A program made the position numbers and the translations under genes. DNA of 64,000 nt. Source: Candidatus Acidiferrum sp. (GTDB lineage Bacteria > Verrucomicrobiota > Verrucomicrobiia > Limisphaerales > UBA8199). Location of the stretch: the NCBI GenBank assembly GCA_035541055.1, contig DATKNZ010000220.1:3992-67991 (forward strand), written 5' to 3'. Of this stretch, positions 114 to 30,040 are shown piece by piece (within the stretch, counting starts at the first letter, position 1; each line of letters starts with the position of its first letter). The notes under the pieces were generated by a model that was given only the letters and a program-made list of their open reading frames with translations, searched no databases and had not been told where the DNA came from.

Positions 114-1049
114 ATGGAGGCAAAAACAATGAGCACTATGCAGGACCGAGTTCTGTCTACGCGGATCTACTCCAACCTGGGCGTGGAGCTGTGCGCGAAT
201 ACCGTGGTTGATATTGCGGGCGAGCGGCTGACGCCGGATGACACGAAGGCTTACGCGGAGTTCTTCATCGCCCATGCCTTCCCGGTGGTGACGGCGCACG
301 GGACGTCGCTGCACCCGGGGACGGTGGCCAATTCCTTCCGCTCGATGCGGCACCAGGTGTTCAACCGGGCGCACCTGATGAAAGCCTACGATAAGTCCGG
401 CAAAGGCGAGATACCGCGCGACCATATCCTGGGGAGCATCGTGGCGGTGGAGTTTCCGCAAACGCCGGGCGGCGGCTGGCGAGTGGGGAGCCGGCGCGAT
501 CCCCCGGCGATCCGGGCGGCGGCGGTGATCCACAAGCACGCGGAAGGGGTGCCGAAGATCCTGGGCGAGCACCTGAGCGGGCGGCACAAGTGGACGGTGA
601 GCATGGAAGTGGATTATAACCTCCTGCAATCGGGGTTCGTCGTGGGGCAGCGCGACCAGGCCAAGGACGCTGAGGCGAAGCTGATGAACGCCACGACGCC
701 GGTGGAGTTCAACGAGCTGGGAATGGGGTACGTGCCGATGGAGCAGGCCCCGGAATCTCTGCTGGAGACCTACGACTACAACAAGCTGATGATGAAGCGC
801 AACGCGTCCTGGGAGGGCCTGCCGGTGACGATGCTCAAGGGAGGAATCAACGGGCAGGTGCATTTCCGCGGGGTAGGGCTGGTGCGCTACGGGGCGGAGC
901 GGGAAGCGGTGATCGCGCAGATACTGGCGACGGACCCGGCGCTCATGCCGTCGCTCATGGACGCCGAGGAGGAGCTGGCCGAGCTGCGGAGCTATTTTGA
1001 GAGCGTCGTGAAGGGGGCGGTGGGGAGCGTGGAAGCGTTAGAGCGTTGA
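114..1049 (+). CDS. Hypothetical phage protein (311 aa), upstream of head genes
   Basis: ATG ORF with coding-like composition and no motif I can name. Its last codons run into the AGCGTKRR repeat. Confidence 0.55.
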   Translation: MEAKTMSTMQDRVLSTRIYSNLGVELCANTVVDIAGERLTPDDTKAYAEFFIAHAFPVVTAHGTSLHPGTVANSFRSMRHQVFNRAHLMKAYDKSGKGEIPRDHILGSIVAVEFPQTPGGGWRVGSRRDPPAIRAAAVIHKHAEGVPKILGEHLSGRHKWTVSMEVDYNLLQSGFVVGQRDQAKDAEAKLMNATTPVEFNELGMGYVPMEQAPESLLETYDYNKLMMKRNASWEGLPVTMLKGGINGQVHFRGVGLVRYGAEREAVIAQILATDPALMPSLMDAEEELAELRSYFESVVKGAVGSVEALER

Positions 1050-1212
1050 AGCGTTGGAGTCAGACGAATCAGGTGAATCGGTCGGATCGGACGGATAGCC
1101 AATAGCCAATAGCCGAGAAGGCACCGAGAAGATGGGAACATCCAACAACCAACATCCAACATCCAACATCCAACGGGCATAGCCGATAGCCAATAGCCGA
1201 TAGCCAATAGCC
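1026..1212 (+). repeat. Composite repeat cassette C1
   Basis: AGCGTKRR x4 (1026-1059, spans the stop codon), ~9-nt GAAT/GGAT-ending units (1060-1094), ATAGCCR x3 (1095-1114), AACATCC x5 (1137-1174), ATAGCCR x5 (1179-1212). It ends 11 nt before the ATG at 1224. Confidence 0.95.
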
Positions 1213-1223
1213 AACAAGGCACC

Positions 1224-2249
1224 ATGCAAGATACATTCATCAATCATCCCTCACTGAAGCGGTCGGGGTTCAAGACGTTTCCGGACTACCTGTATGTGGT
1301 CACGGCGATATCGAACCCGGTGCGGTACCGGACGCGGTATGAGTTGTATCGCGCGTTCGAGAAGCGGGTGGCGGACGCGGGGGCGATTCTCTACACAGTG
1401 GAGGCGGCGTTTGGGGACAGGCCGTTCGAGGTGACCGAGGCGGGGAGCCCGCGCCATATCCAGCTTCGCACGCTGGATGAGCTGTGGCACAAGGAGAACC
1501 TGCTGAACATCGGGATTGGGCGGCTGCCCCGCGAGGCGAAGTACATTGCGTGGATTGATGCCGACATCCTGTTCACCCGGCCGGACTGGGCGCAAGAGAC
1601 GCTGCACCAGCTCCAGCATTATCATTTCGTGCAGATGTTCTCGAAGGCGGTGGACCTGGGGCCGAATTACGAGCACCTGAACGAGGCGCTGTCATGGACG
1701 GAGAGCGAGCGGCAGGGGTTGCCGTTCAGGGGGACGAAGGAAACGCTGGTGGACGGATCACAGGTGACGGTGCAGGGGAAGCCCTACGTGCGCGGGGCGT
1801 GGCACTCGGGGCTGGCCTGGGCGGCGACCCGGGAGGCACTGGACGCGGTCGGAGGATTGATTGATGTGGCCATTCTCGGCAGCGCAGACAGGAACATGGC
1901 CGCGGGGCTGTTTGGGCACATGGCCGATACGATTGATCCGACGTTCAGCCCGGCCTACAAGGCGGCGCTGCTGGAATGGGAACAGCGGGCGGAGCGACAT
2001 ATCCGGCGCGACGTGGGCCAGGTCTCGGGGACCGTGCTGCATCATTGGCACGGGAAGAAGGTGAACCGGAAGTACACCGACCGGTGGAAGATCCTGGCGA
2101 AGTACCAGTTCGACCCGAACACCGACCTGAAGCGGGATGCGCAGGGGTTGTGGCAGTTTGAGGATGCCCATGACCTGCGAAGCATTGGGCTGCGGGACGC
2201 GGTGCGGAATTATTTCCGGGAGCGGAACGAGGATTCGATAGAGGTTTAG
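1224..2249 (+). CDS. GT-A-fold-like glycosyltransferase (putative)
   Basis: 341 aa with a DxD-type motif in KYIAWIDADILFTRPDW after a hydrophobic strand. Assignment is by motif and pattern only. Confidence 0.45.
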   Translation: MQDTFINHPSLKRSGFKTFPDYLYVVTAISNPVRYRTRYELYRAFEKRVADAGAILYTVEAAFGDRPFEVTEAGSPRHIQLRTLDELWHKENLLNIGIGRLPREAKYIAWIDADILFTRPDWAQETLHQLQHYHFVQMFSKAVDLGPNYEHLNEALSWTESERQGLPFRGTKETLVDGSQVTVQGKPYVRGAWHSGLAWAATREALDAVGGLIDVAILGSADRNMAAGLFGHMADTIDPTFSPAYKAALLEWEQRAERHIRRDVGQVSGTVLHHWHGKKVNRKYTDRWKILAKYQFDPNTDLKRDAQGLWQFEDAHDLRSIGLRDAVRNYFRERNEDSIEV

Positions 2250-2254
2250 CGGGC

Positions 2255-2270
2255 GTGCAGACGTCTGCAC
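2255..2270. repeat. Palindrome copy P1, perfect GTGCAGACGTCTGCAC
   Basis: Intergenic, 5 nt after the stop of 1224..2249, at the left edge of low-GC island A. Confidence 0.95.
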
Positions 2271-2371
2271 GGGAGTAAATGGGCGTGGGATTTCGCGGGG
2301 TTGATCGACAGGGGACGCAGCGCACAAGGCTCTGGCACTCAACGGATTGCGCGTCGGATTTGCATTCCTGC

Positions 2372-2453
2372 TATACGAACCAATGGTCCGTGCTACCCTT
2401 CCGTTCACGTTAACGTTTAGGGGTTGACAGTTTCGCGGCAGGGCCGATAAACT
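2372..2453 (+). promoter_or_regulatory. Promoter/operator module copy 1 (rightward)
   Basis: 10-bp palindrome ACGTTAACGT (2407-2416), TTGACA (2424-2429), 18-nt spacer, TAAACT (2448-2453). The whole block is duplicated in inverted orientation at 32501-32582. Confidence 0.6.
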
Positions 2454-2460
2454 ACGCGCT

Positions 2461-5353: not shown

Positions 5354-5401
5354 CCAGATCACTGGAGCGGGCGGACCACGTTTGTTGGTGATTCGGGAGC
5401 C

Positions 5402-6464: not shown

Positions 6465-6680
6465 AACATCCAACATCCAACATCCAAGGATGAAGACCAG
6501 TTCATTACAGAAGGAAACGAAGGGAACGAAGCGCGGGGCCGACGCGGATGGCGTGCAGACGTCTGCACGAGGCGTCGGAAGGGGGGGAGCGTGGAGCGTG
6601 GAGCGTGAAGAGGCGCAATAGCCAATCGCCGATAGCCGATAGCCAATAGCCGATAGCCGAGGGACGAGGGACGAGGGGGG
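6465..6680 (+). repeat. Composite repeat cassette C2 (contains palindrome P2 at 6553-6568)
   Basis: AACATCC x3 (6465-6487), GGATGAAGACCAGTTC (6488-6503), ACAGAAGGAAACGAAGGGAACGAAG (6507-6531), perfect GTGCAGACGTCTGCAC (6553-6568), GAGCGTG x3 (6587-6607), ATAGCCR/ATCGCCR x6 (6618-6658), GAGGGAC x3 (6659-6680). Confidence 0.95.
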
Positions 6681-8177: not shown

Positions 8178-9428
8178 ATGAAGCCTTCCATTCAAAACAC
8201 GCTGGAGAACCTGCGGTACAAGGTCACGGCGCTAAACAGTCTGACCGCACATCGGGGTTCCCTGCGCGGGCTGGACAAGACCTTCGAGGCGGCGCTCAAC
8301 CAGACGGACGAGCAGCGGCAGAAACTCGGCAAGCTGCTCGAACGCGCCCGCCGGGGCCAGGTCGAGGCGGCCACGGAGTTGAACGCGTTGCGGACGACGA
8401 CGATTGACCTGTATGTGCGGGCGATGTCGAACTTCATCGCGTTCTTCCGCCCGGTGAACCTTGAGCCGAACGAGCAGGCGTGCTTCGTGCACACGTTCCG
8501 CAACCCGGTGGCGGTGCGCTACATGGGGCAGGACGGCGGTGTGAAATCCGTCAAGGCGGTCAAGGCGCAGCGCCCGATCTTCATTGATATGCGGGAGATC
8601 ACGTCGGACGCGGTGGGCTACCAGATCCGGGACCTGAACCTGGGCCCGGACGTGGCGGCCGCCGCGCAGGCGACGGTGGATATCGGCTGGGACATGGCAA
8701 ACAAGGTGGACTTCGAGGCGTACACGATGATGACCTCGGGGGAATCAACGCTCGGCACGGGCTACGAGGGCTACAGCATTTACGGGCCGTTCAACCTTAC
8801 GGGGACGGAGCTCAGCCGCACGTGGATTCCGAACGACCGCATCCTGCCGTCCAACCTGCCGACGACCAACGACCTGGTCCTCAGCGACAATGGCAGCGGC
8901 GAGGGGCAGAGCAACCAGTTCCGGCTGGCGGTGTTCCGCGCCATCCTGAAGTACTGCGAGGCGTGGGGGAACATTTGGGGCACGCCGATCCGCCCGACCG
9001 GGATGATCCTGGTGTCGTCCGCGGACGTGACCGACCTGGCGAGCGAGATCACGCCGACGAGCCTGATCTTCCCGAACGCGGTGGCGGAGGGAATCCTGCA
9101 GAACTACTCGCAGGTGGATTACATGAACGTCCGCTGGACGCTCGTGCCGGACGTGACGCTGCCGAGCGGCGTGTGCTACCCGGTGCTCAACCGTCCGGTG
9201 GGCGAGGTCTATTACAAGCCAGCGTTTGACGAGGAGTTCGTCGAGACGGACCGCAAGCGCAACTGGGAGGAGCGCAGCTCTTTGAAGGTGCTGAACTTCG
9301 CGATCCCCGAGCCGTGGCGGGTGAACGCGCTACGCGTCACCTACGCGGACCTGGACGAGCTCAAGGCGCAGGCCAAAGCCAAGCTGGCGAGCGCCAAGGC
9401 GGCGGCGAAGGCCAAGGGCCGGAAGTAG
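8178..9428 (+). CDS. Major capsid protein candidate (HK97-fold type)
   Basis: 416 aa with a charged helical N-terminal ~100 aa (delta-domain-like). Position is after the scaffold-like ORF, and a 12-bp GC hairpin follows. No homology search done. Confidence 0.5.
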   Translation: MKPSIQNTLENLRYKVTALNSLTAHRGSLRGLDKTFEAALNQTDEQRQKLGKLLERARRGQVEAATELNALRTTTIDLYVRAMSNFIAFFRPVNLEPNEQACFVHTFRNPVAVRYMGQDGGVKSVKAVKAQRPIFIDMREITSDAVGYQIRDLNLGPDVAAAAQATVDIGWDMANKVDFEAYTMMTSGESTLGTGYEGYSIYGPFNLTGTELSRTWIPNDRILPSNLPTTNDLVLSDNGSGEGQSNQFRLAVFRAILKYCEAWGNIWGTPIRPTGMILVSSADVTDLASEITPTSLIFPNAVAEGILQNYSQVDYMNVRWTLVPDVTLPSGVCYPVLNRPVGEVYYKPAFDEEFVETDRKRNWEERSSLKVLNFAIPEPWRVNALRVTYADLDELKAQAKAKLASAKAAAKAKGRK

Positions 9429-10343: not shown

Positions 10344-10356
10344 GGGGGACGGAAGG

Positions 10357-10675
10357 GAGCGTGGAGCGTGGAGCCCCTTTCACAGAAGGAAACGAAGTAA
10401 ACGAAGAGGCAAAGCGTGAAGACGCCAAACGCAACGACGCCGGCGGTGGCCTGGAGCTGCCGCCGGCTTGCCAATTCTCTACAGAAGGAAACGAAGGGAA
10501 CGAAGGGAAGAGAGGGGGAAACATCCAACATCCAACATCCAACATCCAACATCCAACATCCAAGGAGAGAAACAGGGCTCGCGGGGATGAAGACCAGTTC
10601 TGGCGGCATAGCCAATAGCCAATCGCCGATAGCCGAGCCAGAGAACTCAGGGCTCGCGGGGACGCTTGCCCTCCC
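10357..10675 (+). repeat. Composite repeat cassette C4
   Basis: GAGCGTG x2.5 (10357-10374), CACAGAAGGAAACGAAGTAAACGAAG (10381-10406), GC hairpin GCCGGCGG..CCGCCGGC (about 10438-10466), ACAGAAGGAAACGAAGGGAACGAAGGGAAG (10481-10510), AACATCC x6 (10520-10561), truncated GGGCTCGCGGGG + GGATGAAGACCAGTTC (10575-10600), ATAGCCR x4 (10608-10634), GGGCTCGCGGGGACGCTTGCCCTCCC (10650-10675). Confidence 0.95.
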
Positions 10676-10699: not shown

Positions 10700-11239
10700 A
10701 TGAGCACGCCGATTAACACCTTCTACCCGGGCCTGCGGATTATGCTGGGCGACCTGAACGCGTGCGTGCAGCGATACGCGGACGGGACGCTGCTGGACGG
10801 AGTCCGCACGGCGCTGGCGCTGAACAAGATGCCGGGCTACGCGGTGGACACGGACCTCATCAGCGTGACGCCGGACATTGTGGGGCCGGGGCTGGACCCG
10901 AACAAGTTCGCGCTGCTGAGCTACCACACGGTGAAGCTGTTCGTTGACCCGATGCCCGACCGGTATGCGTTTCGGACGCGGGCGTTCTCGGAGAGCGTGG
11001 GGTCGCGCAACCGGTTTCTGCAAACGCTGGAGCTGGAGATCCACAAGCTGGAGAACGGCTGCATGTTCAGCGCGTGGCAGAATTATTTCGCGTGGCTGTC
11101 GGGCATGGCGGGGCTGCCGCTGGCGGAAGTGCTGACGGACTTCCACGTGCAGGCGCCGCTGTGGAACGCGACGCTGACACGCGAGGGGCTGCACACGATA
11201 CCGGACCAGATGCGGCCGGGGGTGCCGGTGGGGAGGTGA
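10700..11239 (+). CDS. Hypothetical head-tail region protein (179 aa)
   Basis: ATG ORF, position only. Confidence 0.5.
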   Translation: MSTPINTFYPGLRIMLGDLNACVQRYADGTLLDGVRTALALNKMPGYAVDTDLISVTPDIVGPGLDPNKFALLSYHTVKLFVDPMPDRYAFRTRAFSESVGSRNRFLQTLELEIHKLENGCMFSAWQNYFAWLSGMAGLPLAEVLTDFHVQAPLWNATLTREGLHTIPDQMRPGVPVGR

Positions 11240-11363
11240 AGCGTGGAAGCGTTAAAGCGTAGAGGCGGTGAAGCGAACGAAACCGGAAAACGTGCAGACG
11301 TCTGCAAGAGGCGGGTGGAGGGTTGAGGGAAATAGCCAATCGCCAATCGCCGATAGCCGATCC
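11239..11363 (+). repeat. Composite repeat cassette C5 (contains palindrome P3 at 11292-11307)
   Basis: AAGCGTNN octamers x5 (11239-11278) starting at the stop codon, GTGCAGACGTCTGCAA (11292-11307), GTGGAGG GTTGAGG (11315-11329), ATAGCC/ATCGCC x4 (11332-11358). The ATG at 11369 follows. Confidence 0.95.
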
Positions 11364-12279: not shown

Positions 12280-12311
12280 GAGGATAGAGGATGGAGGATT
12301 GAGGATGGAGG
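12280..12311 (+). repeat. GAGGATD heptamer array x4.5 (C6), SD-like
   Basis: gaggata gaggatg gaggatt gaggatg gagg. It provides GGAGG 8 nt upstream of the ATG at 12318. Confidence 0.9.
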
Positions 12312-12317
12312 AAAGCC

Positions 12318-13259: not shown

Positions 13260-13330
13260 CACAGAAGGAAGCGAAGGAAACGAAGGGGAAATAGCCAATC
13301 GCCGATAGCCGATAGCCGATAGCCTATAGG
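13260..13330 (+). repeat. Composite repeat cassette C7
   Basis: CACAGAAGGAAGCGAAGGAAACGAAGG (13260-13286), then atagcc aatcgcc gatagcc x3 tatagg (13291-13330). Confidence 0.95.
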
Positions 13331-13792: not shown

Positions 13793-13894
13793 GGCGTGGG
13801 AGCGTGGAAGCGTTGGAGCGGGGGAACATCCAACATCCAACATCCAACACCCAACACCCAATGGGGATAGCCAATAGCCAATAGCACATAGCCA
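13793..13894 (+). repeat. Composite repeat cassette C8
   Basis: G-rich GGCGTGGGAGCGTGGAAGCGTTGGAGCG directly after the stop (13793-13820), AACAYCC x5 (13825-13859), ATAGCC-type x4 (13867-13893) running straight into the ATG at 13895. Confidence 0.95.
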
Positions 13895-14767
13895 ATGATA
13901 GGAACGCGGATCAGCACGAACACGGAGGAGGTGAAGGGCCGACTGATGCGGCTGGAGGCCGAGATGCATAAGGCGTTTTTGCGGGCGCTGGAGGTGGACT
14001 ATTGGCGGCCGGTGCTCAAGCGGCGTGCTTACGTCGTGCTGAACCGGGAATGGGCAAAGGAGTCGGACGAGGGGCGGCGGCGGTTCTACCAGACGCTTTC
14101 GCACCAGATCGTGGGGACAGTGGTGGGGATGCTGTTTGATTCGGGGGCCTGGTTCGTGGCGGCGGTCCCGGACGCGGCGGTGGACGCGAGCGCGCTCTGG
14201 CCGGACCTCGCCCGGGCAGCGCAGTTCAACGCGATGACCCAGCCCACAGGCAAACCCGGCCGCCCCACGGACCTGGCACGGGGACTGGCGGGAGCGCCCG
14301 AGCTGCTCTACCCCGAGGAGCACGGCAACCTGGAGCGGGTGCGGCAGACGATCCGGGATTGGTGTGCGCTGGAAAAGCACCTGAAGGCCGACCGGGACTA
14401 TAACGCGGACGGGACCGTCAAGACGCCCGAGCAGATTGCCGAGCGCATCATGGAGATCCTGGGCGTCGGCAAAGAGGTGAAGGCACGCACGGCTGTCATG
14501 GAGCAGGAGGCCAAGGAATTGTTCGCGGCGATCAACGACTGGCTGGCGGGCAATGGGGCGACGTCGCCCGAGATGGCCCGGGCGGTGAATAACGCTGACG
14601 CGGTGCAGGGCGGAAAGCCGCCGCCGCCCCGGCTGGACCCGGACTCGGCGCGGGAATGGCTGGAACGCGTGCTGGGCGATTGGGTGGAGACGACACGCAA
14701 GCTGCTGCCGGGGCGCGTTCAGAAGGAACTGGGCGGGGTGCGGCAGATGATGGCGAAGGGACGGTAA
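13895..14767 (+). CDS. Hypothetical phage protein (290 aa)
   Basis: ATG ORF, helical and charged, function unknown. Confidence 0.55.
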   Translation: MIGTRISTNTEEVKGRLMRLEAEMHKAFLRALEVDYWRPVLKRRAYVVLNREWAKESDEGRRRFYQTLSHQIVGTVVGMLFDSGAWFVAAVPDAAVDASALWPDLARAAQFNAMTQPTGKPGRPTDLARGLAGAPELLYPEEHGNLERVRQTIRDWCALEKHLKADRDYNADGTVKTPEQIAERIMEILGVGKEVKARTAVMEQEAKELFAAINDWLAGNGATSPEMARAVNNADAVQGGKPPPPRLDPDSAREWLERVLGDWVETTRKLLPGRVQKELGGVRQMMAKGR

Positions 14768-14769
14768 CC

Positions 14770-14879
14770 GTGGTGCGTGGTGCGTGGTGCGTGGTGCGTG
14801 TTGCGTGAAGAACCCAGATAGCTAATAGCCGACCCAAATAGCCGATAGCCGATAGCCGATAGCCAAATAGCCAATAGCC
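14770..14879 (+). repeat. Composite repeat cassette C9
   Basis: GTGGTGC x5 (14770-14807) beginning 3 nt after the stop, then about 8 ATAGCY units (14818-14879) ending 3 nt before the ATG at 14883. Confidence 0.95.
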
Positions 14880-14882
14880 GAT

Positions 14883-15824
14883 ATGAACTGCTTAGAGAGT
14901 CCCGCGATCACGGAACAGACGATGGAGTCGGCGACTTACGCGCTGCTGGCGGAATGGCTGGGGCAATGGTTCGACGGGGGCACACACACGCTGGGGACAC
15001 AACCGGCGCGAGTGTGGCCGCTGGTGCAGCCAAGCTTTGGGCAAGGCCCGATCCAGCAGCCGTTGCAGGGCAGCATCGAGATACGCGTGGTGATGCAGCC
15101 GCGGGCGGAGGCGATGTCCACGGTGGATACTTCGATGTATGCGGGGAAGCAGATCTTGGATTATGTGACCCTGAATTTCTGGATTCGGGCGAAGATGACC
15201 GGACGGGGGCAATCGCAGTTGCAGGCGCGGACGGTGGGCGAGCTGCTCAAGGCACTACTCACGCATCCTGATTCGAGGTATTTGCTGGCGCAGAAGGGGG
15301 TCCATCACCTGCAACCGCAAGGGCCGGCGACGCCGATGCCGAGCACGGAATGGGCGGAGCGGCTGATGGTGTGCGCGGCGCAGTTGCATTACCCGGTGTC
15401 GTTCGGGCCGGACGCGCCGCTGCCGCCGGAGCGGCCGGGCTTCACCTACGAGGTGCTGTTCTACGAGGCGGACCCGGTGCTGGCAGGCGATTACCTGCTG
15501 GGCACTTACCGGTGGAGCGCGCCCATGAGGCTGAGCGGGATGCGGGCAGTGGGCTGGGCGTCACAGACGGCGGGCGTGACGCTGGGGCTGGAGGTCAATG
15601 GCGTGCTGACAGGGGACACGGTGACGCTGCCGGTGGGCGAGCCGAACGTGGAGGTGCAGGCGACGGCGGCGGTGAACCTGGAGATTGATCCGGGGGCTAT
15701 CGTGCGGGTGAAGGTGCTCGCCGCGCCGGACGCGGTGGACACGGCCTGGCATGTGAGCCTATCGCTGGCGGTAGCCCCGGCCTGCGCGTGCTTCCGCTTC
15801 CCTCCTCAACCTGGAAATGGATAG
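14883..15824 (+). CDS. Major tail protein candidate with C-terminal LEVNG (Ig-like?) domain
   Basis: 313 aa, the last large virion gene before the chaperone/tape-measure pair (ignoring island B). C-terminal domain at nt 15453-15779 is paralogous to 11942-12268. The last ~14 codons lie in lower-GC island sequence. Confidence 0.4.
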   Translation: MNCLESPAITEQTMESATYALLAEWLGQWFDGGTHTLGTQPARVWPLVQPSFGQGPIQQPLQGSIEIRVVMQPRAEAMSTVDTSMYAGKQILDYVTLNFWIRAKMTGRGQSQLQARTVGELLKALLTHPDSRYLLAQKGVHHLQPQGPATPMPSTEWAERLMVCAAQLHYPVSFGPDAPLPPERPGFTYEVLFYEADPVLAGDYLLGTYRWSAPMRLSGMRAVGWASQTAGVTLGLEVNGVLTGDTVTLPVGEPNVEVQATAAVNLEIDPGAIVRVKVLAAPDAVDTAWHVSLSLAVAPACACFRFPPQPGNG

Positions 15825-19281: not shown

Positions 19282-22200
19282 ATGAGCGAGAGCGGCAGCC
19301 CGATTTTGACCGAGAGCATCAAGCTGGACATTCAGACGCCGAAGCAGACGGGTCTGGAAAAGCTGCTGGAGCAGCTCGACCAGGTGGCGATTGCGGCCCG
19401 GCAGGCGAACAAGGCGCTGGCGGGAATGGAGCAGCAGGGCCAGCCGAAGTTCGCCTCGATCAAGGGGCTGACGAAAGACATTCAGGAGTTGCAGAAGGGC
19501 ATCGGAGGCAGGGCGCTCTCGCTGTCGCTGCCGGACTTGTCGAAGGCTTACGGGCTGCACCTGAAGGCGTTCAAGGATTTCCTGGCGGAGCGGGATGACC
19601 TGTTCAATAAGAGCACGTTTCGCAAGGGGGCCTTCAGCGGAGCGCCCTCGGCGGCGGCGGCGATCTTCGCTTTTGACAACCAGAGCATCGCCCGGCGCAA
19701 GAAGCTGCTGGCGGACGCGCTGACGCCCACGGTCAGCTCCGTGCAGGGGATCAAGCTGGGCAAGACGGGCAAGGTAGCGCTGGACGTGGCGGGGGCGCAG
19801 GTGGAGGCGAGGCTGGTGGGGAAGGTGCAACTGGCGGTGCCGGCGGAACAGGTGGTGACGGCGCCGGCGGCGGGCCGAACGGACGCTCGCCCATCGCCGA
19901 GAGCCAAGCCCGCGGCCCGAATAGCCGATAGCCAATCGCCGATAGCCAAAGTCCCGGGGGCGGGCGTGCAGGCGTCTGTAGAGGGACCAATCAAGCTGGT
20001 CATACCGGCAGCGCAAATACAGGCGAGCGTGGAGGGGATGATTACGGCGGCGGCGGCGACGGCCAGCGGCGGGGTGGTGCGCGATGCCAAGACGGGGAAG
20101 TTTGTGAGTACCGGGGGCGGAGCGGGCACGAGTACAAGCACGAGGACGAGGACGAGCACAGGGACGAGCAAGGCGCTGGGAGGGTTGAATGTCGGGCCGC
20201 AGGCGGGGGAGTTTGAGCGGCGGCGGATTGAGGACGCCAGGACGGGGCGCGTGCGCGAGACGGTGGCGCGGCGGGACGCGTCGGGGGCCATCGTGGAGGA
20301 GACCTGGGACAATGCTTACGACGCCTTCAAGGTGGCGCGGACGACGAGCCGGTCGGTGACCGGGATTTCGCCGCTGCAACAGTTCCGCACGATTCGCACG
20401 CTGAACGAGGAGGTTTACCGGCAGATGGTGGGGGCGCTGCCGGCGCATGACAAGGTGGGGCGGGGCTTCGGCACGTCGCTGGCGATGACGCAGCAGGCCA
20501 ATGCGCTGGAGGGAATCTTTACGGCGCATCCCGAGCTGGCCGCCGCCCTCGGTCCGCAGCAGGCGGGGAAACTGCAAGCGATCCTGAGCGCGCAGGCAGC
20601 CACGCTGCGCGCACGGGCGGGCGCGGTGAGCGAGGACGCGACGCAAGCCTACGTGAAGATGCTGGACCAGGCGGAGGAGCGGCGGTCCAAGCGGTCGGTG
20701 AGCACGCAGGAAAAGGCGCTGCGGATGTCCGGCGGGCAGGCCGGGCACGCTATGCACATGGCGGAGGGGGAAGCGAAGATCTACGAGCTGCAGACGCCGG
20801 ACGTTTACCGTTCCGGGGCGACCAAGGCTCACTACTTCGGCCTGAAGGCGCAGGGGGCCGACCAGGCGGCGGCGATTATCCAGTCGGCGCTGGCGGCGAA
20901 TCCGCGGGCCAGTGCCGACCTGCGGCGGGAGATGACCGAGAAGATGGAGGAGCACCTGCTCAACGCGAGGATCTTCCGGGCGGCGGGCGGCGTTGCCCCG
21001 GGAGCGCGGCCGGCCACGGGCGAATACGGGCGGTTCCTGGCGGGGCTGAAGGCGTTCACGCCGATGGGGATGCTGGCCAATACGACGAAGGTCACGGGGT
21101 GGGCGGCGGCGGTGACCGTGCTCTACAAGAGCGTGGAGCTGGCGCGGTATTCGCTGGGGCGGTTCATCGAGGTGGGCGAGGAGACGGCCAGGCTGGACGT
21201 GGTGTTCCGAAAGGTGGGCGGGAGCACGCAGGAGTTGACGGGCGACATTTTGAAGCTGGCTTCGGCCAATGCCCGGGATGCGGCCCAGGCGATGGACAGC
21301 GCGACGGAATGGTCGCGGCTGGGGCTGACACGCAGGCAGGTGGGCGAGGCGACCAAGGCAAGCCTGACGGCGGCCAACGTGGCCCACATGAAGCCCGAGG
21401 AGACGACCAAGCAGCTCTCGACACTCATGCACGTGTTCGAGTTGGACGCGACCGAACTCAACGGGGTGATGGGGATGCTGACGGCGACGAGCCAGCGATA
21501 CAATGTGACGCTCGAGGATTTGTTCAGCGGGCTGGACCGGAGCGCGGCGACGGCCAAGGCGGCCAAGGTGAGCCTGGGCGAGCTGCAAGCCTTGATCGCG
21601 GTGATGGTGGGCCGCACGGGGCAGACGGGCATCATCGTGGGCAACACGCTGAAGAACATCTTCACGCAGTTCAGCAACCCGACGATGCAGCGATACCTGC
21701 GGGTGCGCGGCATCGAGACGATGGCGACCGAAGGGGAGAACATGGGGCAGCTCAAGTCGGGCAGCCAAATCCTGCGAGATGTGTTCGTGCGGTACTCGGG
21801 GATGAAGCCGGCTGAGCAGGCGGACTTGTCCCGCAACCTGGCGGGGCGGTTGCAGGTGGGCCGGTTCCAAAGCCTGATGGAAGGCTACGCCGACGCGCAA
21901 AAGCTGGCGGTGGATTCGCAGCTCAAGCTGAACGCGGCACAGGAAGCCAATACCCGCATACTGGGGACGCTCAAGGCGCAACTGACGGCGCTGCGGGTGG
22001 AATGGGACCGGATGATGATGACGGCCGGGCAGTCGTGGGGGCCGTGGGCGGCAGAGCAGGTGCGCTATGGCAAGAACATCCTGCGGTCGATCAACGCGGG
22101 TGGGGAGGTGGAATCCCCCCGCACTATATACCTGCGGAAACAAGGCCTCGTTCCGTCGTCGGAGCAAGAGGCCGCCGAGCGAGCCGCGGCGCGGCGCTGG

Positions 22201-23973
22201 CTGGAGGGGCAGATCAAAGCCACGGGCCGCGTACCGGGCTTCTGGCAGACGTTCGCGACTGTAGCGCGGACCAACAGCGGCATGAGGGTTTGGGACTCCG
22301 AACGGCTGAAGCTGCTCTACGAGACACCTTACGAGCGGGGCACGGAGGAGTTCCAGAACAAGGTGCAGGAGCTGCACGGGCAGGCAGAGTCGGCCGCGCT
22401 CAAGGCACGGTTGTTCGAGACGGTGGGCACGGCGCTGCCCGGGGCGATGCGGACCAATCCCGAGATGGCGCGCTCGATGGCCCGGGCGGCCGGGTCGGAG
22501 ATGAGCGCGGCGGACGCCCAGCGCCTAAATGAAATGATGACGGCGGGAAACACGGGCGGCGTGCGGGACCTGCTCAACGTGCAGACGTCTGCGGCGAAGC
22601 GGCAATCGGCGGAAGCGGCGGCGGCGGAATTGGCCGAGCGCGACCGGCGGGCGGCCGAGGCGAAGGCGCAACTCGCCAAATACGACGCGGACATCCAGAA
22701 GGCGCAAGGGCCGAACGCGACGGAGAGGGAAAAGGCCGGGCTGGGGCAGCTCATCCAGGCCCGCGAGGAATTGACGCGATCCATGGACGCCAACACGGAA
22801 GCGCGGACGCGGGCGCTGGCGGCCATCGAGGAGGAGCTGGGCAAGACGGAGCAGGCGCTCTGGATCAAGCAGCAATACGTGGACCTGCTCAAACAGCAGG
22901 AGATGCTGATGCAGAACGTGGGGCAGCTCAGCGAGCAAGGAACGCCCGAGTCGATGGGGTCGCGGCTGGATGCGCGGGTGGGGTCGCTGCGGGATGAAGT
23001 GGCGCTATTGGAAGCCCAGCGGGACCGGCTGGAGCAGCACGCCAAAGAGCTGGGCACGCCCGAGGCCGAGCAGGCCAAGGACGCCGTGCAGAAAATGCTG
23101 ACCGAAAAGCAGGGAGAATTGGCGGCGCAGAATTCGCCGCAGTTGCGGCAGCTCGCGGCGATTTACGATGCGCGGACGATTGCGGCGCATCGGGCGCAAA
23201 CGGACGTGGCGGGGTGGGCGGTGGGGCCGACGGAGTCGCACCGGCTGTTCGCACAGGAGGCCCGCATACGGGAAGAACTGGCGGCTGCCCGGGCGCGGCA
23301 GGCCACGGGCGGGCTGAGCGATGCCGAGGCGACCCGGGCCAAGCAGCTCGAAGTGGACCTGACGCGGACGCAGGAGCAGATCCAGACGCGCATTGTGGAC
23401 CTGGCGCGGCAGGAACGGCAGATCCGCATGGACTCGCTGCGGGAGTTCAACAAGGGAATCCTGCTGGCCGGCCCGGGGGAGATGCTCCAGCGGCTGCAAG
23501 TGAGCCAGATGCTCCACCGGCAGGTGACGCCGGGCGAGTTCTTCGCCATGTCGCCCGAGGTGCGCCGGATGTATTTCGAGGCGCGGGGCGGCGACGCGGG
23601 CATGACGAACCGCTGGGAGCAACGCGAGATGGCCCGGACGGGGCATCGGCGCTGGAGCGAGCCGATGGACGAGGCCGTCCACGCGGTGGCCCGCGAACAG
23701 GTGGACCGCTGGGGGGCGGTGCAACGGCGGAACACGCTGGGCAGCCTGACGACGCTGCCCGACATGCCGCTGCCCTCGCTCAAGGAGGCGCGGCAACTGG
23801 CCGACAGCCTGACGCTGATGAACGGCGGGGTGCTGACGGTGACCCAGGCGCTGGCCAATCTCTCCCGCGTGGTGGACGCGCTGAACCATCGGTTTGGAGG
23901 GGGCGAGCCGCGGGCGCAAGGGCGGCGGTTTGATGTGAGCGCGGGGTTTGCGCCGGGGGCGCCGGGGTTCTGA
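19282..23973 (+). CDS. Tail tape measure protein
   Basis: 1563 aa, Ala/Gln/Glu/Arg-rich and helical. Tape-measure core-like segment (LGLTRRQVGEATKASLTAANVAHM...GRTGQTGIIVGNTLKNIFTQF). Follows the chaperone pair. Confidence 0.85.
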   Translation: MSESGSPILTESIKLDIQTPKQTGLEKLLEQLDQVAIAARQANKALAGMEQQGQPKFASIKGLTKDIQELQKGIGGRALSLSLPDLSKAYGLHLKAFKDFLAERDDLFNKSTFRKGAFSGAPSAAAAIFAFDNQSIARRKKLLADALTPTVSSVQGIKLGKTGKVALDVAGAQVEARLVGKVQLAVPAEQVVTAPAAGRTDARPSPRAKPAARIADSQSPIAKVPGAGVQASVEGPIKLVIPAAQIQASVEGMITAAAATASGGVVRDAKTGKFVSTGGGAGTSTSTRTRTSTGTSKALGGLNVGPQAGEFERRRIEDARTGRVRETVARRDASGAIVEETWDNAYDAFKVARTTSRSVTGISPLQQFRTIRTLNEEVYRQMVGALPAHDKVGRGFGTSLAMTQQANALEGIFTAHPELAAALGPQQAGKLQAILSAQAATLRARAGAVSEDATQAYVKMLDQAEERRSKRSVSTQEKALRMSGGQAGHAMHMAEGEAKIYELQTPDVYRSGATKAHYFGLKAQGADQAAAIIQSALAANPRASADLRREMTEKMEEHLLNARIFRAAGGVAPGARPATGEYGRFLAGLKAFTPMGMLANTTKVTGWAAAVTVLYKSVELARYSLGRFIEVGEETARLDVVFRKVGGSTQELTGDILKLASANARDAAQAMDSATEWSRLGLTRRQVGEATKASLTAANVAHMKPEETTKQLSTLMHVFELDATELNGVMGMLTATSQRYNVTLEDLFSGLDRSAATAKAAKVSLGELQALIAVMVGRTGQTGIIVGNTLKNIFTQFSNPTMQRYLRVRGIETMATEGENMGQLKSGSQILRDVFVRYSGMKPAEQADLSRNLAGRLQVGRFQSLMEGYADAQKLAVDSQLKLNAAQEANTRILGTLKAQLTALRVEWDRMMMTAGQSWGPWAAEQVRYGKNILRSINAGGEVESPRTIYLRKQGLVPSSEQEAAERAAARRWLEGQIKATGRVPGFWQTFATVARTNSGMRVWDSERLKLLYETPYERGTEEFQNKVQELHGQAESAALKARLFETVGTALPGAMRTNPEMARSMARAAGSEMSAADAQRLNEMMTAGNTGGVRDLLNVQTSAAKRQSAEAAAAELAERDRRAAEAKAQLAKYDADIQKAQGPNATEREKAGLGQLIQAREELTRSMDANTEARTRALAAIEEELGKTEQALWIKQQYVDLLKQQEMLMQNVGQLSEQGTPESMGSRLDARVGSLRDEVALLEAQRDRLEQHAKELGTPEAEQAKDAVQKMLTEKQGELAAQNSPQLRQLAAIYDARTIAAHRAQTDVAGWAVGPTESHRLFAQEARIREELAAARARQATGGLSDAEATRAKQLEVDLTRTQEQIQTRIVDLARQERQIRMDSLREFNKGILLAGPGEMLQRLQVSQMLHRQVTPGEFFAMSPEVRRMYFEARGGDAGMTNRWEQREMARTGHRRWSEPMDEAVHAVAREQVDRWGAVQRRNTLGSLTTLPDMPLPSLKEARQLADSLTLMNGGVLTVTQALANLSRVVDALNHRFGGGEPRAQGRRFDVSAGFAPGAPGF
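19881..19981 (+). repeat. Cassette-like block embedded in-frame in the tape measure ORF (with palindrome P6 at 19966-19981)
   Basis: GGACGCTCGCCC (19881-19892), ATAGCCR/ATCGCC x4 (19921-19947), GTGCAGGCGTCTGTAG. Translated as TDARPSPRAKPAARIADSQSPIAKVPGAGVQASVE. Confidence 0.9.
22579..22594. repeat. Palindrome copy P7 (GTGCAGACGTCTGCGG) inside tape measure
   Basis: Read as V-Q-T-S-A. Confidence 0.85.
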
Positions 23974-24001
23974 AATAGCCAATAGCCAATAGCCAATAGC
24001 C
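23974..24001 (+). repeat. AATAGCC x4 array (C12) starting at the tape measure stop codon
   Basis: tgA AATAGCC AATAGCC AATAGCC AATAGCC. A weak palindrome relative ACAGGACGTCTGTAAG lies at 24049-24064. Confidence 0.95.
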
Positions 24002-24347: not shown

Positions 24348-24470
24348 CACAGAAGGGAACGAAGACTGATAAAGAGAAGTCAGGGTTGGCGGGGACGCTC
24401 GCCCTCCCGGGAGAGAAGGAAACGAAGGCAATAGCCAATAGCCGAGAGCCAATAGCCGAGAGCCGGTAGC
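24348..24470 (+). repeat. Composite repeat cassette C13
   Basis: CACAGAAGGGAACGAAG (24348-24364), GGGTTGGCGGGGACGCTCGCCCTCCC (24383-24408), GAGAAGGAAACGAAGG (24412-24427), aatagcc aatagcc gagagcc aatagcc gagagcc ggtagc (24430-24470). Confidence 0.95.
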
Positions 24471-27337: not shown

Positions 27338-27347
27338 GGCAAGCACG

Positions 27348-27412
27348 GATAGCCAATAGCCAATTGCCGATAGCCAACAGGAGATGGGGCTCGCGGGGAC
27401 GCTCGCCCTCCC
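27348..27412 (+). repeat. Cassette C14a
   Basis: gatagcc aatagcc aattgcc gatagcc (27348-27375), then GGGCTCGCGGGGACGCTCGCCCTCCC (27387-27412). Confidence 0.95.
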
Positions 27413-27512
27413 GGGGGTGGGGACAATGTGAGGTGAGCATTCAGCAATATTTAGCTTGCCGGTGAATCGGCTGCGGGTAGAGTCCGCATCCTGTTTGTGC
27501 AACCGACAATTT

Positions 27513-27815
27513 ATGATGAAAGCTCTCCCCGAACTGAAGGCCCGTGCAGACGCCTGCAGGCCGGCGGTGAATAGCCAATCGCCGATAGCCCATAGCCGAA
27601 CGAATCCGCGGGATTTTGTTTTTCTGGATGCGCGGAGCCGGCTCTACCGGGTGCGGGAGGTGGAGGGAGCTTCCTGGCTTTACTACTGGCAAGGGGGCGG
27701 GTGGGTGAGCTTGCGGAAGCTGATGCCCGAGACGGCTCGCGGATACGCACTGCTGGCGCTACCCGCAGACGAGGCGGGGCGCTACGCCGGCGGGGTGCCT
27801 TTTCTTCCCGAATGA
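27513..27815 (+). CDS. Hypothetical protein (100 aa from first ATG); start uncertain
   Basis: ATGATG at 27513. The N-terminal 30 codons read through palindrome P9 and an ATAGCC array (ADACRPAVNSQSPIAHS). Confidence 0.35.
   Translation: MMKALPELKARADACRPAVNSQSPIAHSRTNPRDFVFLDARSRLYRVREVEGASWLYYWQGGGWVSLRKLMPETARGYALLALPADEAGRYAGGVPFLPE
27544..27597 (+). repeat. Cassette C14b: palindrome P9 (27544-27559) + ATAGCC-type x4 (27570-27597)
   Basis: GTGCAGACGCCTGCAG, then aatagcc aatcgcc gatagcc catagcc. Confidence 0.9.
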
Positions 27816-27826: not shown

Positions 27827-27852
27827 CACGGAAGGAAACGAAGCGAACGAAG
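27827..27852 (+). repeat. Purine-rich CACGGAAGGAAACGAAGCGAACGAAG leader array (C15)
   Basis: 9-nt GAAGSRAAC-type units ending 6 nt before the ATG at 27859. SD-like AGGA content. Confidence 0.85.
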
Positions 27853-29994: not shown

Positions 29995-30009
29995 CGCTCC
30001 GCCTTTTTT
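29971..30009 (+). terminator. Rho-independent terminator at the end of the glycosyltransferase gene
   Basis: GCGGGCGCTAC-(9 nt loop)-GTAGCGCTCCGC (11-bp stem, 1-nt bulge; the stop codon TAG lies in the 3' arm), followed by C + TTTTTT (30004-30009). Confidence 0.7.
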
Positions 30010-30011
30010 AT

Positions 30012-30040
30012 CACACCAAGGAAACGAAGGAAACGAAGTG
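30012..30040 (+). repeat. Purine-rich CACACCAAGGAAACGAAGGAAACGAAGTG leader array (C16)
   Basis: GAAGGAAAC-type units 10 nt upstream of the ATG at 30051. Confidence 0.85.

Follow-up and report, generated by a model that had tools for sequence, protein, structure and literature searches.

We find that the gaps between the late genes of a prophage consist of short tandem arrays, mainly of period 7, drawn from a small vocabulary whose members keep to one strand orientation, as the original prediction had it. Our preferred reading, which we hold with somewhat more belief than doubt, is that these arrays are heptanucleotide long simple-sequence repeats, generated by slippage, filtered at the level of the mRNA and belonging to a repertoire shared by host and phage. 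Most likely they are tolerated as unstructured landing sites for ribosomes, or put to use as such.

The window, by which we mean the whole 64-kb stretch of DNA analysed here, holds a prophage that is integrated at a tRNA-Leu gene and runs to about 40.3 kb. Host genes, together with the best of the named homologues, place the host lineage probably in the Verrucomicrobiota. The features discussed below are collected in Table 1.

Table 1. Arrays, motifs and reference genes of the window (copy numbers follow the unit; "relative" is the closest syntenic phage)
Feature	Position	Strand	Context
G-rich 8/16-mer array GAGCGTGGAAGCGTTA x2.2	1025..1059	+	overlaps stop codon of gene 114-1049 (TRF, sequence)
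ATAGCCA x3 (1095-1114), AACATCC x5.4 (1137-1174), ATAGCCR x5 (1179-1214)	1095..1214	+	last array stops 9 nt short of ATG at 1224
Perfect palindrome GTGCAGACGTCTGCAC	2255..2270		
Composite gap: AACATCC x3.3, GGATGAAGACCAGTTC box, GAAGGAAAC motif, palindrome 6553-6568, then GGAGCGT x3.1, ATAGCCR x6, CGAGGGA x2.9	6465..6677	+	promoter-like sequence between these and ATG at 6778
HK97-fold major capsid protein gene	8178..9428	+	anchors region as virion module
GC-rich hairpin	9442-9472	+	after major capsid gene; kept in relatives
ATAGCCA x4.4	9478-9508	+	ends 4 nt before ATG at 9513
GGAGCGT x2.7, two GAAGGAAAC motifs, conserved hairpin 10440-10466, AACATCC x6.3 (10520-10563), GGATGAAGACCAGTTC box, ATAGCCR x3.9 (10608-10634), 26-nt REP-like element 10650-10675	10356..10675	+	in gap of 356 nt; orthologous gap in relative 72 nt
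TGAAGCGT x4.9, palindrome 11292-11307, ATCGCCR/ATAGCCR x4.6 (11331-11362)	11237..11362	+	first array runs from stop codon, last ends 6 nt 5' of ATG
GAGGATD x4.7	12280..12312	+	ends 5 nt before ATG at 12318; sole array with SD-like GGAGG
GAAGGAAAC motif, then ATAGCCR x5.6	13260..13329	+	
GCGTGGGA x4 at stop, AACATCC x5.3, ATAGCCA x4.3	13794..13896	+	textbook gap; abuts ATG at 13895; 4-nt overlap at orthologous junction in relative
CGTGGTG x5.6 at stop, then ATAGCCR x6.4	14769..14883	+	abuts ATG at 14883; orthologous gap in relative 5 nt
Tail tape-measure protein gene	19282..23973	+	
ATAGCCR x3.9	19921..19947	+	within tape-measure ORF; encodes IADSQSPIA; ATCGCC variant eliminates in-frame TAG
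AATAGCC x4	23974..24001	+	immediately 3' of tape-measure stop codon; exception to claimed order
GAAGGGAAC motif, degenerate 26-nt element (24383-24408), GAAGGAAAC motif, ATAGCCR/AGAGCCR x4-5	24348..24465	+	last array ends 10 nt before ATG at 24476
ATAGCCR x4.1, then 26-nt REP-like element 27387-27412	27349..27412	+	
ATAGCCR x4	27570..27599	+	5' end or leader of gene 27456-27815
GAAGGAAAC-type purine motif	27827..27852	+	directly 5' of ATG at 27859
Purine motif similar to GAAGGAAAC type	30018-30043		before ATG at 30051
Heptamer arrays GATAGCC, GGGTTGA, GAGGGTT	33457-33486, 34289-34319, 35753-35785	+	all within minus-strand SNF2 helicase CDS; encode QPSTLNP-type inserts
Tyrosine integrase	38825-40162	minus	prophage right end
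tRNA-Leu	40234-40320	plus	prophage right end
26-nt element, inverted pair, REP/REPIN-like	46819..46898		directly after host gene stop
26-nt element, second inverted pair	55611-55690		directly after stop codon
Inverted heptamer pair: TTGAGTC x2, then GACTCAA/GACTCTA x5	56150..56214		chromosomal, between convergent genes; able to form hairpin

The predominance of period 7 is far beyond chance. Exact runs of this period number 19 in the window, against a mean of 0.17 and a maximum of 1 in 100 dinucleotide shuffles, and periods 5, 6, 8 and 9 give 3, 4, 0 and 1 runs. With a more tolerant detector, 21 of the 24 period-7 arrays in the window are intergenic. Copy numbers reported by TRF range from 3 to 6.4 and lengths from 15 to 66 nt, nearly all below 50 nt; many arrays are 76-96% matched and several are perfect. 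TRF and direct reading located the predicted arrays to within a few bases, including the four of AACATCC and those of GGAGCGT, CGTGGTG, GAGGATD and CGAGGGA. The GGATGAAGACCAGTTC box (two copies) and the GAAGGAAAC motif (8-9 copies) were likewise verified, all on the + strand, but the supposed GTTGAGG arrays at 11315 and 18211 turned out by TRF to be one or two copies only. For ATAGCCR, about 70 units in 15 arrays had been counted. The 15 arrays and their single orientation stand; of the 70 + strand matches to AT[AC]GCC[AG], however, only about 62 lie within them. The minus strand of the window carries 42 matches, each isolated, and the arrays, all in + orientation, lie nearly without exception between + strand late genes.

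The arrays are not an artefact of the assembler, a concern raised with the original prediction, because an ENA MEGAHIT contig, an ENA contig from a second sample and Logan unitigs are 100% identical to the window across them. These sequences also bear on the idea that the arrays are contingency or phase-variation devices, in which slippage in copy number tunes expression downstream. Short tandem repeats are inherently prone to slippage, copy numbers vary between gaps, and units and arrays turn over among related phages. Even so, no difference in array length was found among the window, the two ENA assemblies of different samples and the Logan unitigs (one segment compared had 9 SNPs and 0 indels), which is weak evidence against tuning. 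Furthermore, the arrays are mostly imperfect with only 3-6 copies, and the genes downstream encode core virion proteins. We consider a contingency function extremely unlikely.

Comparison with related phages shows how labile the arrays are. The closest syntenic relative, L159, has the same gene order and proteins 75-80% identical (44-80% gene by gene). Its junctions from g6778 to g14883 measure 1-72 nt in eight of nine cases and 161 nt in the ninth, and none of the nine contains an array; the prophage gaps are thus unusually long, as predicted. A second relative, L158, has expanded gaps built from mostly different units, and L162 and L168 are almost free of arrays. Array turnover is complete among relatives at 75% identity, and since the L159 junctions are array-free and the L158 units mostly different, the arrays appear to be recent, labile and dispensable. 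This disagrees with the notion of a conserved grammar that punctuates each gene.

Could the arrays instead be recombination linkers or small mobile cassettes, whose identical boundary tracts of 25-45 bp drive module exchange among co-infecting phages and gene conversion from gap to gap? A 5.2-kb segment (1224-6430) that is missing from all relatives is bounded on both flanks by AACATCC and ATAGCCR arrays, identity to L159 jumps from gene to gene, and blocks have been shuffled between the gaps at 6465-6531 and 10480-10600. The AACATCC-ATAGCCR cassette, with a similar junction AACGG[GC]C, recurs in a viral contig (L037) that has no detectable protein similarity to the prophage, and there too it reads stop, AACATCC, ATAGCCR, ATG. 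We nevertheless regard this explanation as improbable: the arrays have neither conserved flanks nor target duplications, direct repeats across an essential operon should give deletions, gene-by-gene mosaicism is ordinary in phages and present in the array-free relatives too, and no recombinant junction was caught.

The original prediction regarded the arrays as prophage-specific and absent from the flanking chromosome. Neither claim is borne out. The prophage extends to about 40.3 kb, with arrays at 33.4-35.8 kb, and in the true chromosomal part there is an inverted heptamer pair, besides two pairs of the 26-nt element that are likewise inverted. Chromosomes of close relatives of the host carry the same families between genes: loci whose squalene-hopene cyclase is 88-89% identical carry arrays of ATAGCCR (as the reverse complement), CGTGAAA, AAATGGC and CGAAGAC. 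In metagenome-assembled genomes (MAGs) of Verrucomicrobiota and Planctomycetota they adjoin housekeeping genes, e.g. those for DAHP synthase, a CoA-transferase, a TonB receptor and similar genes. GAAAGCA arrays were found in about 60 high-GC viral stretches, typically ending 0-15 nt before an ATG. In 815 kb of sequence around independent ATAGCCR matches, from more than 100 genomes, there are 263 exact runs of period 7, compared with 27, 33 and 26 for periods 5, 6 and 8, and the surveyed loci contain 168 distinct unit families. Judged from sequence, the heptamer families appear to form a repertoire common to the host lineage and its phages.

Such recurrence across gaps, unrelated phages and host-relative chromosomes is what would be expected if the units were sequence-specific sites for a hypothetical protein that recognises RNA or single-stranded DNA in 7-nt registers, within a post-transcriptional regulon of host and phage; possible readers are cold-shock-domain proteins, ribosomal protein S1 and regulators encoded by the phage or the host. 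Arrays within an operon all point the same way, and in the pooled loci, for which gene calls are crude, their orientation is biased towards the start of the downstream gene (44 versus 20). MacGregor made the same proposal for TAACTGA (PMC4679880). On the other hand, the same junctions in close relatives are array-free or carry mostly different units, the surveyed loci hold 168 unit families, and chromosomal copies occur in either orientation, often as inverted, hairpin-forming pairs. We think it unlikely, on balance, that the units are binding sites of this kind.

The arrangement of arrays within gaps is less regular than was claimed. A fixed order, with G-rich arrays at the upstream stop codon and ATAGCCR last, is seen in about 6-7 of the 12 array-bearing gaps (p 0.14-0.16 in the window alone). 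It is broken in the gaps 6431-6777, 23974-24077 and 27338-27455, and partly in 1050-1223. Eight period-7 arrays end at most 25 nt before a start, two of them abutting the ATG; several others are distant from any start, or directly follow a stop (23974), and no array precedes the major capsid gene, which is presumably expressed more strongly than any other. At independent genome loci, again with crude gene calls, G-rich arrays tend to lie near stops and G-poor ones near starts (rho -0.41, p 0.003). A strand scan found no inverted, hairpin-forming heptamer pairs inside the late operon. ATAGCCR keeps its + orientation even over the minus-strand gene at 33457, which suggests, from this one array, that orientation is set by the DNA strand rather than by the mRNA.

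What might these sequences do at a start codon? The lineage has no Shine–Dalgarno signal: SD-like 4-mers precede two of 16 late genes and eight of 44 host genes, compared with 14% of random windows. The G-poor arrays are almost free of structure, their MFE averaging -0.45 kcal/mol where that of coding 40-mers is -11.6 kcal/mol (p 1e-5), and the leaders of the array-free relatives are also poor in G (0.18) and rich in A (0.33), coding sequence having a G content of 0.39. The mean energy required to open the start site is 6.6 kcal/mol in the prophage, compared with 9.9 in L159 (p 0.08), 11.5 in L160 (p 0.02) and 11.1 in L162 (p 0.05), a modest gain in accessibility that is absent against L168 and L169. 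Of the roles suggested in the original prediction, decoupling of translation fits best: where arrays are present, junctions that overlap or measure 1-5 nt have given way to leaders free of structure, and start sites are more accessible.

A bolder version of this idea is that the heptamers are the cis half of a Shine–Dalgarno-independent translation system, used throughout the host lineage, with a putative protein of 7-nt footprint, and copied by its phages. If so, tracts of (AUAGCCR)n, (AACAUCC)n or (GAAAGCA)n would be covered by polymers of a cold-shock-domain or S1-like protein that brings ribosomes to the start, and phages would have copied these tracts before their late genes, swapping cassettes and hijacking the system gene by gene. 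We give this little credence. It is very unlikely that the late transcript is punctuated by G-poor, C-rich arrays acting in Rho loading (as rut sites) or in RNA processing. AACATCC does have the classical composition of a rut site, being G-free, 43% C, unstructured and untranslated. However, ending transcription between each essential late gene and the next would do harm in the absence of antitermination, the array-free relatives have no equivalent, the conserved post-capsid hairpins are better candidates for transcript punctuation, and no match to an Rfam family was found.

Under the preferred reading, that of slippage-generated repeats filtered by the mRNA, heptamer arrays would rise and turn over fast outside coding sequence, with replication slippage or template switching as the presumed mechanism, and would have inflated prophage junctions that were once short and often overlapping to 45-356 nt. 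The mRNA would then act as a filter, for which the evidence is partial: since the lineage has no Shine–Dalgarno signal, the 20-40 nt before a start may have to be G-poor, A/C-rich and unstructured. The arrays persisting at starts, ATAGCCR and AACATCC, would suit this exactly, with predicted folding energies near 0 kcal/mol. Within the late operon only the direct orientation seems to be retained, so that no hairpin would arise inside it, and arrays rich in G or purines appear restricted to the stop side, often starting inside the end of the upstream gene. The net effect would be to turn tight, probably coupled junctions into independent and accessible initiation sites, the arrays serving as structure-free standby or landing tracts for ribosomes, each individually dispensable. 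Several observations count against this account as it stands. Among them are the capsid gene that lacks an array, the arrays remote from any start, the modest gain in accessibility and the + orientation of the array at 33457. Within the window, the polarity from stop to start does not reach significance. Slippage alone is also insufficient, given ATAGCCR in 15 separate places and the same units and cassette order in unrelated phages; this recurrence indicates copying between sites or sequence-specific selection.

The original prediction included the 26-nt element and the palindrome in the array vocabulary, but their distributions differ from it. The 26-nt element, GGGCTCGCGGGGACGCTCGCCCTCCC, has four single copies in the window besides its two inverted pairs. 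It looks like a host REP-like repeat that would also have landed in prophage gaps. The 14-nt core of the palindrome, with up to two mismatches, has 14 sites between 2256 and 38390 (0.31 expected) and none in the chromosomal part of the window. L159 and L162 have seven each, one in the same junction, and unrelated loci yield one in 1.16 Mb. The palindrome thus appears to be a separate motif conserved across the phage family, and its function probably differs from that of the 26-nt element. The truly conserved cis elements of the family would seem to be the TGCAGACGTCTGCA palindrome, together with the hairpins that follow the capsid genes and the promoter in front of gene 6778.

These two elements resemble known systems of their own. 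REP/REPIN sequences (PMC3116915) are short palindromes, present in many copies per genome and often set as inverted pairs outside genes. The chromosomal copies of GGGCTCGCGGGGACGCTCGCCCTCCC likewise form inverted pairs, just past stop codons; the copies in prophage gaps are single. The start-associated sequences and stoperators of mycobacteriophages (PMC3203893, PMC6550527, PMC9283540) are, like the heptamers, short oriented motifs found in many gaps near starts or stops, but each is a lone site of 13 bp, for which a binding protein or a position is defined, and not a tandem array. The nearer analogue in the window is the palindrome, dispersed over many sites of the prophage and conserved in related phages.

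The heptamers also have precedents, contrary to the original prediction that no such architecture had been described: heptanucleotide intergenic repeats are on record (PMC4679880, PMC4692102 and work cited there). The repeats of Borgs (Schoelmerich et al. 2023, PMC9879509) are similarly enriched in mobile elements, fast-evolving, missing at the same site in close relatives, situated between genes or from gene ends onward, and able to encode peptide inserts in ORFs. They are perfect, A-rich and of many unit lengths, they extend over 50 nt or more, and the host has virtually none of them, whereas the arrays here have 7-nt units, are short and imperfect, and belong to families common to the host lineage. 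We rejected a Borg-type assignment: chromosomes of host relatives carry the same families, a chromosomal array lies at 56150-56214, and the arrays, many of them imperfect, are nearly all shorter than 50 nt. The GGGAATC/GGGGAYT repeats of Xanthomonas and Nostoc (Rehm et al. 2015, PMC4692102) are intergenic heptamers too, some in inverted pairs, that vary in length and sequence between close relatives at conserved positions. Their units are able to form G-quadruplexes; those next to starts in the window are poor in G, and only GGGTTGA/GAGGGAC would be capable of this.

Forward-oriented heptamer arrays directly 5' of starts, in regions without ribosome-binding sites, have been described, as have the predominance of heptamers and the idea of polymerase slippage (PMC4679880, PMC4692102). 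The TAACTGA repeats of marine Beggiatoaceae, cyanobacteria and Bacteroidetes (MacGregor 2015, PMC4679880) form forward arrays of 2-6 copies a few nt 5' of starts, with some copies in ORFs, and a translational role has been proposed for them. The window likewise has forward arrays close to starts, with ribosome-binding sites rare in array gaps. TRF found no array of TAACTGA itself in the window, and whereas TAACTGA is one chromosomal family, the window has many, which occupy a phage operon and lie on the stop side too. Finally, the arrays resemble the heptanucleotide class of long simple-sequence repeats (Mrázek et al. 2007) and the cyanobacterial STRR repeats (Mazel et al. 1990), the former as presented in PMC4679880 and PMC4692102 and the latter in PMC4692102. 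In each case, 7-nt units are repeated head to tail beyond chance in a few copies, mostly outside genes, with several families over many loci of one lineage (here 15 intergenic and other arrays of ATAGCCR and four of AACATCC), a preference for period 7 over 5, 6, 8 and 9, a patchy phylogenetic spread and no agreed function. STRR in the strict sense was rejected, the host genes pointing to Verrucomicrobiota rather than cyanobacteria and the unit sequences being different. The window thus differs from both in its units and in its probable host phylum, for which we found no description of such repeats; its arrays are very dense in a prophage late operon, with several families per gap and a uniform strand orientation.

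The heptamer arrays between the phage genes are real. All those listed in the original prediction were reported by TRF, and the gaps were also read directly. Period 7 does dominate, with 19 exact runs where 100 dinucleotide shuffles average 0.17; the window has 3, 4, 0 and 1 exact runs at periods 5, 6, 8 and 9. A tolerant detector finds 24 period-7 arrays, 21 of them between genes and 23 within the prophage. AT[AC]GCC[AG] has 70 matches on the plus strand, about 62 of them within 15 tandem arrays, and 42 on the minus strand, none of which is tandem. No inverted pairs of arrays were found inside the late operon, the plus-strand virion genes. We reject an assembly artefact because independent assemblies agree with 100% identity across them; the longest array is at most 66 nt, which should be shorter than typical reads. 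The window sequence is also found in an 87.7-kb ENA metagenome contig; a second ENA sample and Logan unitigs contain fragments of it (source samples ERZ27256510, ERZ27256600 and SRR8879131). Three unitigs of this phage (L003, L174 and L176) begin and end within heptamer arrays, as the same arrays recur across many gaps.

The extent and order of the arrays had been overstated. They do not stop at 30 kb, since the prophage runs further and carries more of them at 33457, 34289 and 35753, and the flanking chromosome, where no ATAGCCR or AACATCC arrays had been seen, does carry heptamers, as an inverted pair at 56150-56214. The proposed stop-to-start order is clear in the gaps at 10344, 11240, 13793 and 14768, but violated in those at 6431, 23974 and 27338. 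Rather than a fixed rule it is a tendency, not significant from the window alone (p 0.14-0.16). Among independent genome loci, G-rich arrays lie by stops and G-poor arrays by starts (rho -0.41, p 0.003).

The tailed-phage prophage occupies positions 1 to about 40.3 kb, and the remaining 23.6 kb of the window is host chromosome with PSCyt1/PSD1, DUF1501, GH9 and squalene-hopene cyclase genes (main features are collected in the table). The best named homologues of the cyclase are 81-84% identical and mostly from Verrucomicrobiota. Both the genes present and their nearest named homologues indicate a host in the Verrucomicrobiota, not the Acidobacteriota; the MAG label 'Candidatus Acidoferrum sp.' (Acidobacteriota), from one source, is considered unreliable. 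No cultured phage relatives of the prophage were found, a protein-based search of IMG/VR returned no relatives, and the late proteins are mostly orphans in Pfam and PHROGs searches. The capsid protein has no sequence relatives in the PDB, although a fold search did match; NCBI lists an exact copy of it under locus tag VMU04_10160, on a contig of up to 125 kb. In a lower-GC, array-free stretch of the prophage, 16044-16913 encodes a beta-propeller protein, probably a moron, that has NHL repeats and a PEP-CTERM sorting signal. The plus strand is G-rich over most of the prophage (GC skew +0.12 to +0.25, about 0 in the chromosome), weakly so in the lower-GC segments at 2-10 kb, 16-18 kb and 30-32 kb. 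The G-richness persists at 32-40 kb although the genes there are on the minus strand; the asymmetry suggests a link to replication rather than transcription.

Positions of the main features in the window
Feature	Position	Strand	Remarks
HK97 major-capsid-fold gene	8178-9428		AlphaFold pLDDT 76; Foldseek against PDB, E = 1e-9
Tape-measure protein gene	19282-23973
Tyrosine integrase	38825-40162	minus	adjoins tRNA-Leu
tRNA-Leu	40234-40320		beside integrase
TGCAGACGTCTGCA palindrome, perfect copies	2255, 6553, 11292, 18190, 35378
26-nt element GGGCTCGCGGGGACGCTCGCCCTCCC, inverted pairs	46819-46898, 55611-55690		spacer about 28 nt; right after host stop codons
26-nt element GGGCTCGCGGGGACGCTCGCCCTCCC, single copies	10650, 18449, 24383, 27387		prophage

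Related phages allow the gaps to be compared junction by junction. The capsid protein has 56 homologues, and a scan of metagenome contigs yielded 16 syntenic loci in which the gene order g114 to g14883 (genes named by their start in the window) is kept; each orthologous junction was measured from stop to start. In the closest relative, L159 (75-80% identity in the capsid genes), the junctions from g6778 to g14883 have no period-7 arrays. Eight of these nine junctions are 1-72 nt and the ninth is 161 nt; junctions of -4, 1 and 5 nt correspond to 102, 46 and 115 nt in the window. Another locus, L158 (72-77% identity to window proteins), has junctions of 132, 444 and 188 nt with many arrays of mostly different units (GAAAGCA, CGTGAAA, GGCAGAG, CGAAGTC and CACGTTT, plus some GATAGCC). 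Among relatives of lower identity, L162 and L168 have short junctions and almost no period-7 arrays, and L169 and L171 have intermediate junctions with period-7 arrays of other units.

What the relatives keep in their gaps is GC-rich hairpins, one after the capsid gene and one after the next gene, the TGCAGACGTCTGCA palindrome, a G-poor, A/C-rich leader ahead of each ATG, and a promoter-like TTGAC[AG]-N14-TGCGTGAAGG upstream of g6778. As only this short core is kept, the arrays would be insertions or expansions laid over it. The comparative evidence thus argues that they are recent and dispensable, and they do not appear to be a conserved regulatory grammar.

Two further features of these loci deserve mention. 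The fuller promoter-like motif AAAAGATTTTT...TTGAC[AG]-N14-TGCGTGAAGG, upstream of g6778 (6685-6777 in the window), is conserved in the gaps of L160, L162, L163, L168 and L169, and in relatives it also precedes some of the later genes. The downstream half of the motif resembles GAGCGTG/CGTGAAA array units. None of the syntenic relatives has the 5.2-kb segment 1224-6430 (partly of lower GC, 0.58), and in them g114 is followed immediately by g6778; in the window, both AACATCC and ATAGCCR arrays border the segment at each end.

The palindrome TGCAGACGTCTGCA behaves differently from the arrays in that it is kept in syntenic relatives (L159, L160 and L162), where one site even falls at the same gene junction, and the 21-nt g10700/g11369 gap of L159 consists almost wholly of it. 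With up to 2 mismatches there are 14 copies against 0.31 expected, between 2256 and 38390, all in the prophage and in both coding and non-coding sequence; 1.16 Mb of unrelated loci have almost none. The palindrome may be the site of a dimeric protein, such as a stoperator-like operator, a regulator or a methylase target. The 26-nt element GGGCTCGCGGGGACGCTCGCCCTCCC is not confined to the prophage, since the chromosome has two inverted pairs directly after stop codons, which look REP/REPIN-like. It has also got into gaps of the prophage, three times beside ATAGCCR arrays, and lies once within ORF 18325-18939.

The repeat vocabulary extends far beyond this prophage. More than 117 genome loci contain ATAGCCR x3, spread over Gemmatimonadota, Chloroflexota, Poribacteria, Verrucomicrobiota, Planctomycetota, Acidobacteriota and others. 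Chance would account, we estimate, for some tens of single matches, yet many loci carry long arrays. The 815 kb around these loci hold 263 exact period-7 runs versus 27, 33 and 26 at periods 5, 6 and 8. In Verrucomicrobiota and Planctomycetota the arrays lie beside ordinary genes, among them those for DAHP synthase, CoA-transferase, enoyl-CoA hydratase, a TonB receptor and Sua5, often as inverted pairs with predicted hairpins. Close relatives of the host (cyclase 88-89% identical) have chromosomal GGCTATT/GGCTATC, CGTGAAA, AAATGGC and CGAAGAC arrays, 2 and 6 per 22 kb. Arrays are not exclusive to the prophage; the enrichment there is real, though only about 4-fold, at 0.57/kb versus about 0.13/kb in these host-relative loci pooled with the chromosomal part of the window. 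The chromosomal gap that separates the GFO_IDH_MocA and ApbE genes holds arrays in two host relatives, but of different units, GGCTATT (L409, 17289-17319) and GCCATTT (L410, 17315-17352); it resembles a hotspot for chromosomal arrays whose units turn over.

Similar arrays are found in viral contigs. L037 (IMGVR_UViG_3300029798_000046) has the same cassette of stop, AACATCC, ATAGCCR and ATG with no protein similarity to the prophage, and also GAAAGCA, CGTGAAA and GAGCGTG arrays. Combinations of these five families are seen in L037, L316, L389, L370 and L220, viral contigs of about 0.60-0.62 GC without protein similarity to the prophage virion genes; L220 does have an 88% identical homologue of the window gene 3484-4284. 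The families in such contigs are mostly on one strand per contig, with opposite strands in L300, L334 and L380. GAAAGCA arrays occur in 95 viral stretches, typically ending 0-15 nt upstream of an ATG. A 15-nt scan of the viral contigs for GAAGGAAAC was uninformative because matches were at about chance level. The shared vocabulary may mark a common host clade, and it belongs to the host lineage rather than to the prophage. The idea of a novel phage regulatory architecture is not borne out by these comparisons, as the same unit families occur in chromosomes and the junctions of some relatives do without arrays.

Two less likely alternatives fit the vocabulary and the cassette order being common to unrelated phages: that a sequence-specific protein reads the units in a 7-nt register, and that the arrays are recombination linkers. 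Phase variation through array length is unsupported, since no length polymorphism was seen, in a thin sampling. Rho loading is compositionally plausible, although in an essential operon it would do harm, and the array-free relatives have nothing that corresponds to it. Other candidates were rejected: Rfam found no known RNA families in the gaps, scans for intrinsic terminators and sigma-70 promoters in the arrays were at or below chance level, and against a larger mobile element bearing the arrays stands the lack of conserved flanks. Pairing of G-rich with G-poor arrays within a gap was dismissed, as the window units are not complementary; CGTGAAA and CACGTTT do occur together in one gap of L158.

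How might such arrays be tolerated ahead of start codons? The Shine-Dalgarno signal is absent in this lineage: 8 of 44 host genes have an SD-like 4-mer upstream, as do 2 of 16 late genes, versus 14% of random windows. Leaders of the array-free relatives have G 0.18 and A 0.33 (coding sequence, G 0.39). G-poor arrays have essentially no structure: their mean MFE per 40 nt is -0.45 kcal/mol, that of coding windows -11.6 (p 1e-5). The opening energy of ten orthologous start sites (-20 to +10) averages 6.6 kcal/mol in the window and 9.9, 11.5 and 11.1 kcal/mol in L159, L160 and L162 (p 0.08, 0.02 and 0.05); the window is no different from L168 or L169. The gain in accessibility is greatest at junctions that overlap in relatives. 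We infer that heptamer arrays may be continually produced by slippage-type processes, and that selection at the mRNA level would let only unstructured, G-poor, directly oriented arrays last beside start codons. The net effect would be a change from probable translational coupling to independent initiation on a structure-free tract. As to why the period is 7, the sole proposal in the literature is the polymerase footprint (PMC4679880, PMC4692102).

Heptamer arrays also lie within genuine coding sequences. In the minus-strand SNF2 helicase gene (33289-35925), two TCAACCC x4 arrays encode QPSTLNP-type inserts between helicase motifs, and GGCTATC x4 lies near the C-terminus. The tape-measure gene hosts ATAGCCR x4 (19921-19947), where an ATCGCC variant abolishes an in-frame TAG. 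Sense-strand units tend to contain a stop triplet (36 versus 6 in phage sets, 14 versus 14 in chromosomes), so three units stop every frame; we do not rely on this bias, which is confounded by purine skew and non-independent arrays.

These results have some practical uses. Some orthologous phage junctions have arrays, some have none and some have mostly different ones, a natural experiment which, together with the lack of a Shine-Dalgarno signal, makes the idea of an unstructured initiation tract directly testable. A vocabulary common to the host lineage and to protein-dissimilar viral contigs could aid host prediction for uncultured phages. The arrays break short-read unitigs and will fragment assemblies of these phages, and annotators should recognise them as they yield spurious ORFs as well as real peptide inserts.

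Bacterial heptanucleotide repeats have been on record since 1990, to our knowledge with no function assigned. Our literature search, largely outside subscription journals, turned up no account of such arrays in phage late operons or Verrucomicrobiota, and nothing useful on the unit sequences, or on such repeats in Planctomycetes, Chloroflexi and Gemmatimonadetes. Mycobacteriophage start-associated sequences and stoperators are single sites, unlike the tandem arrays of the window. Borg repeats differ too, the window arrays being short, imperfect, of period 7 and common to the host, and the cyanobacterial STRR differ in host and units. The window arrays do have the defining features of heptanucleotide long simple-sequence repeats. 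Their closest match is the TAACTGA arrays of Beggiatoaceae, which share the forward orientation, abut start codons and occur where ribosome-binding sites are rare. The window arrays are a dense, composite, phage-borne case of this known repeat class.
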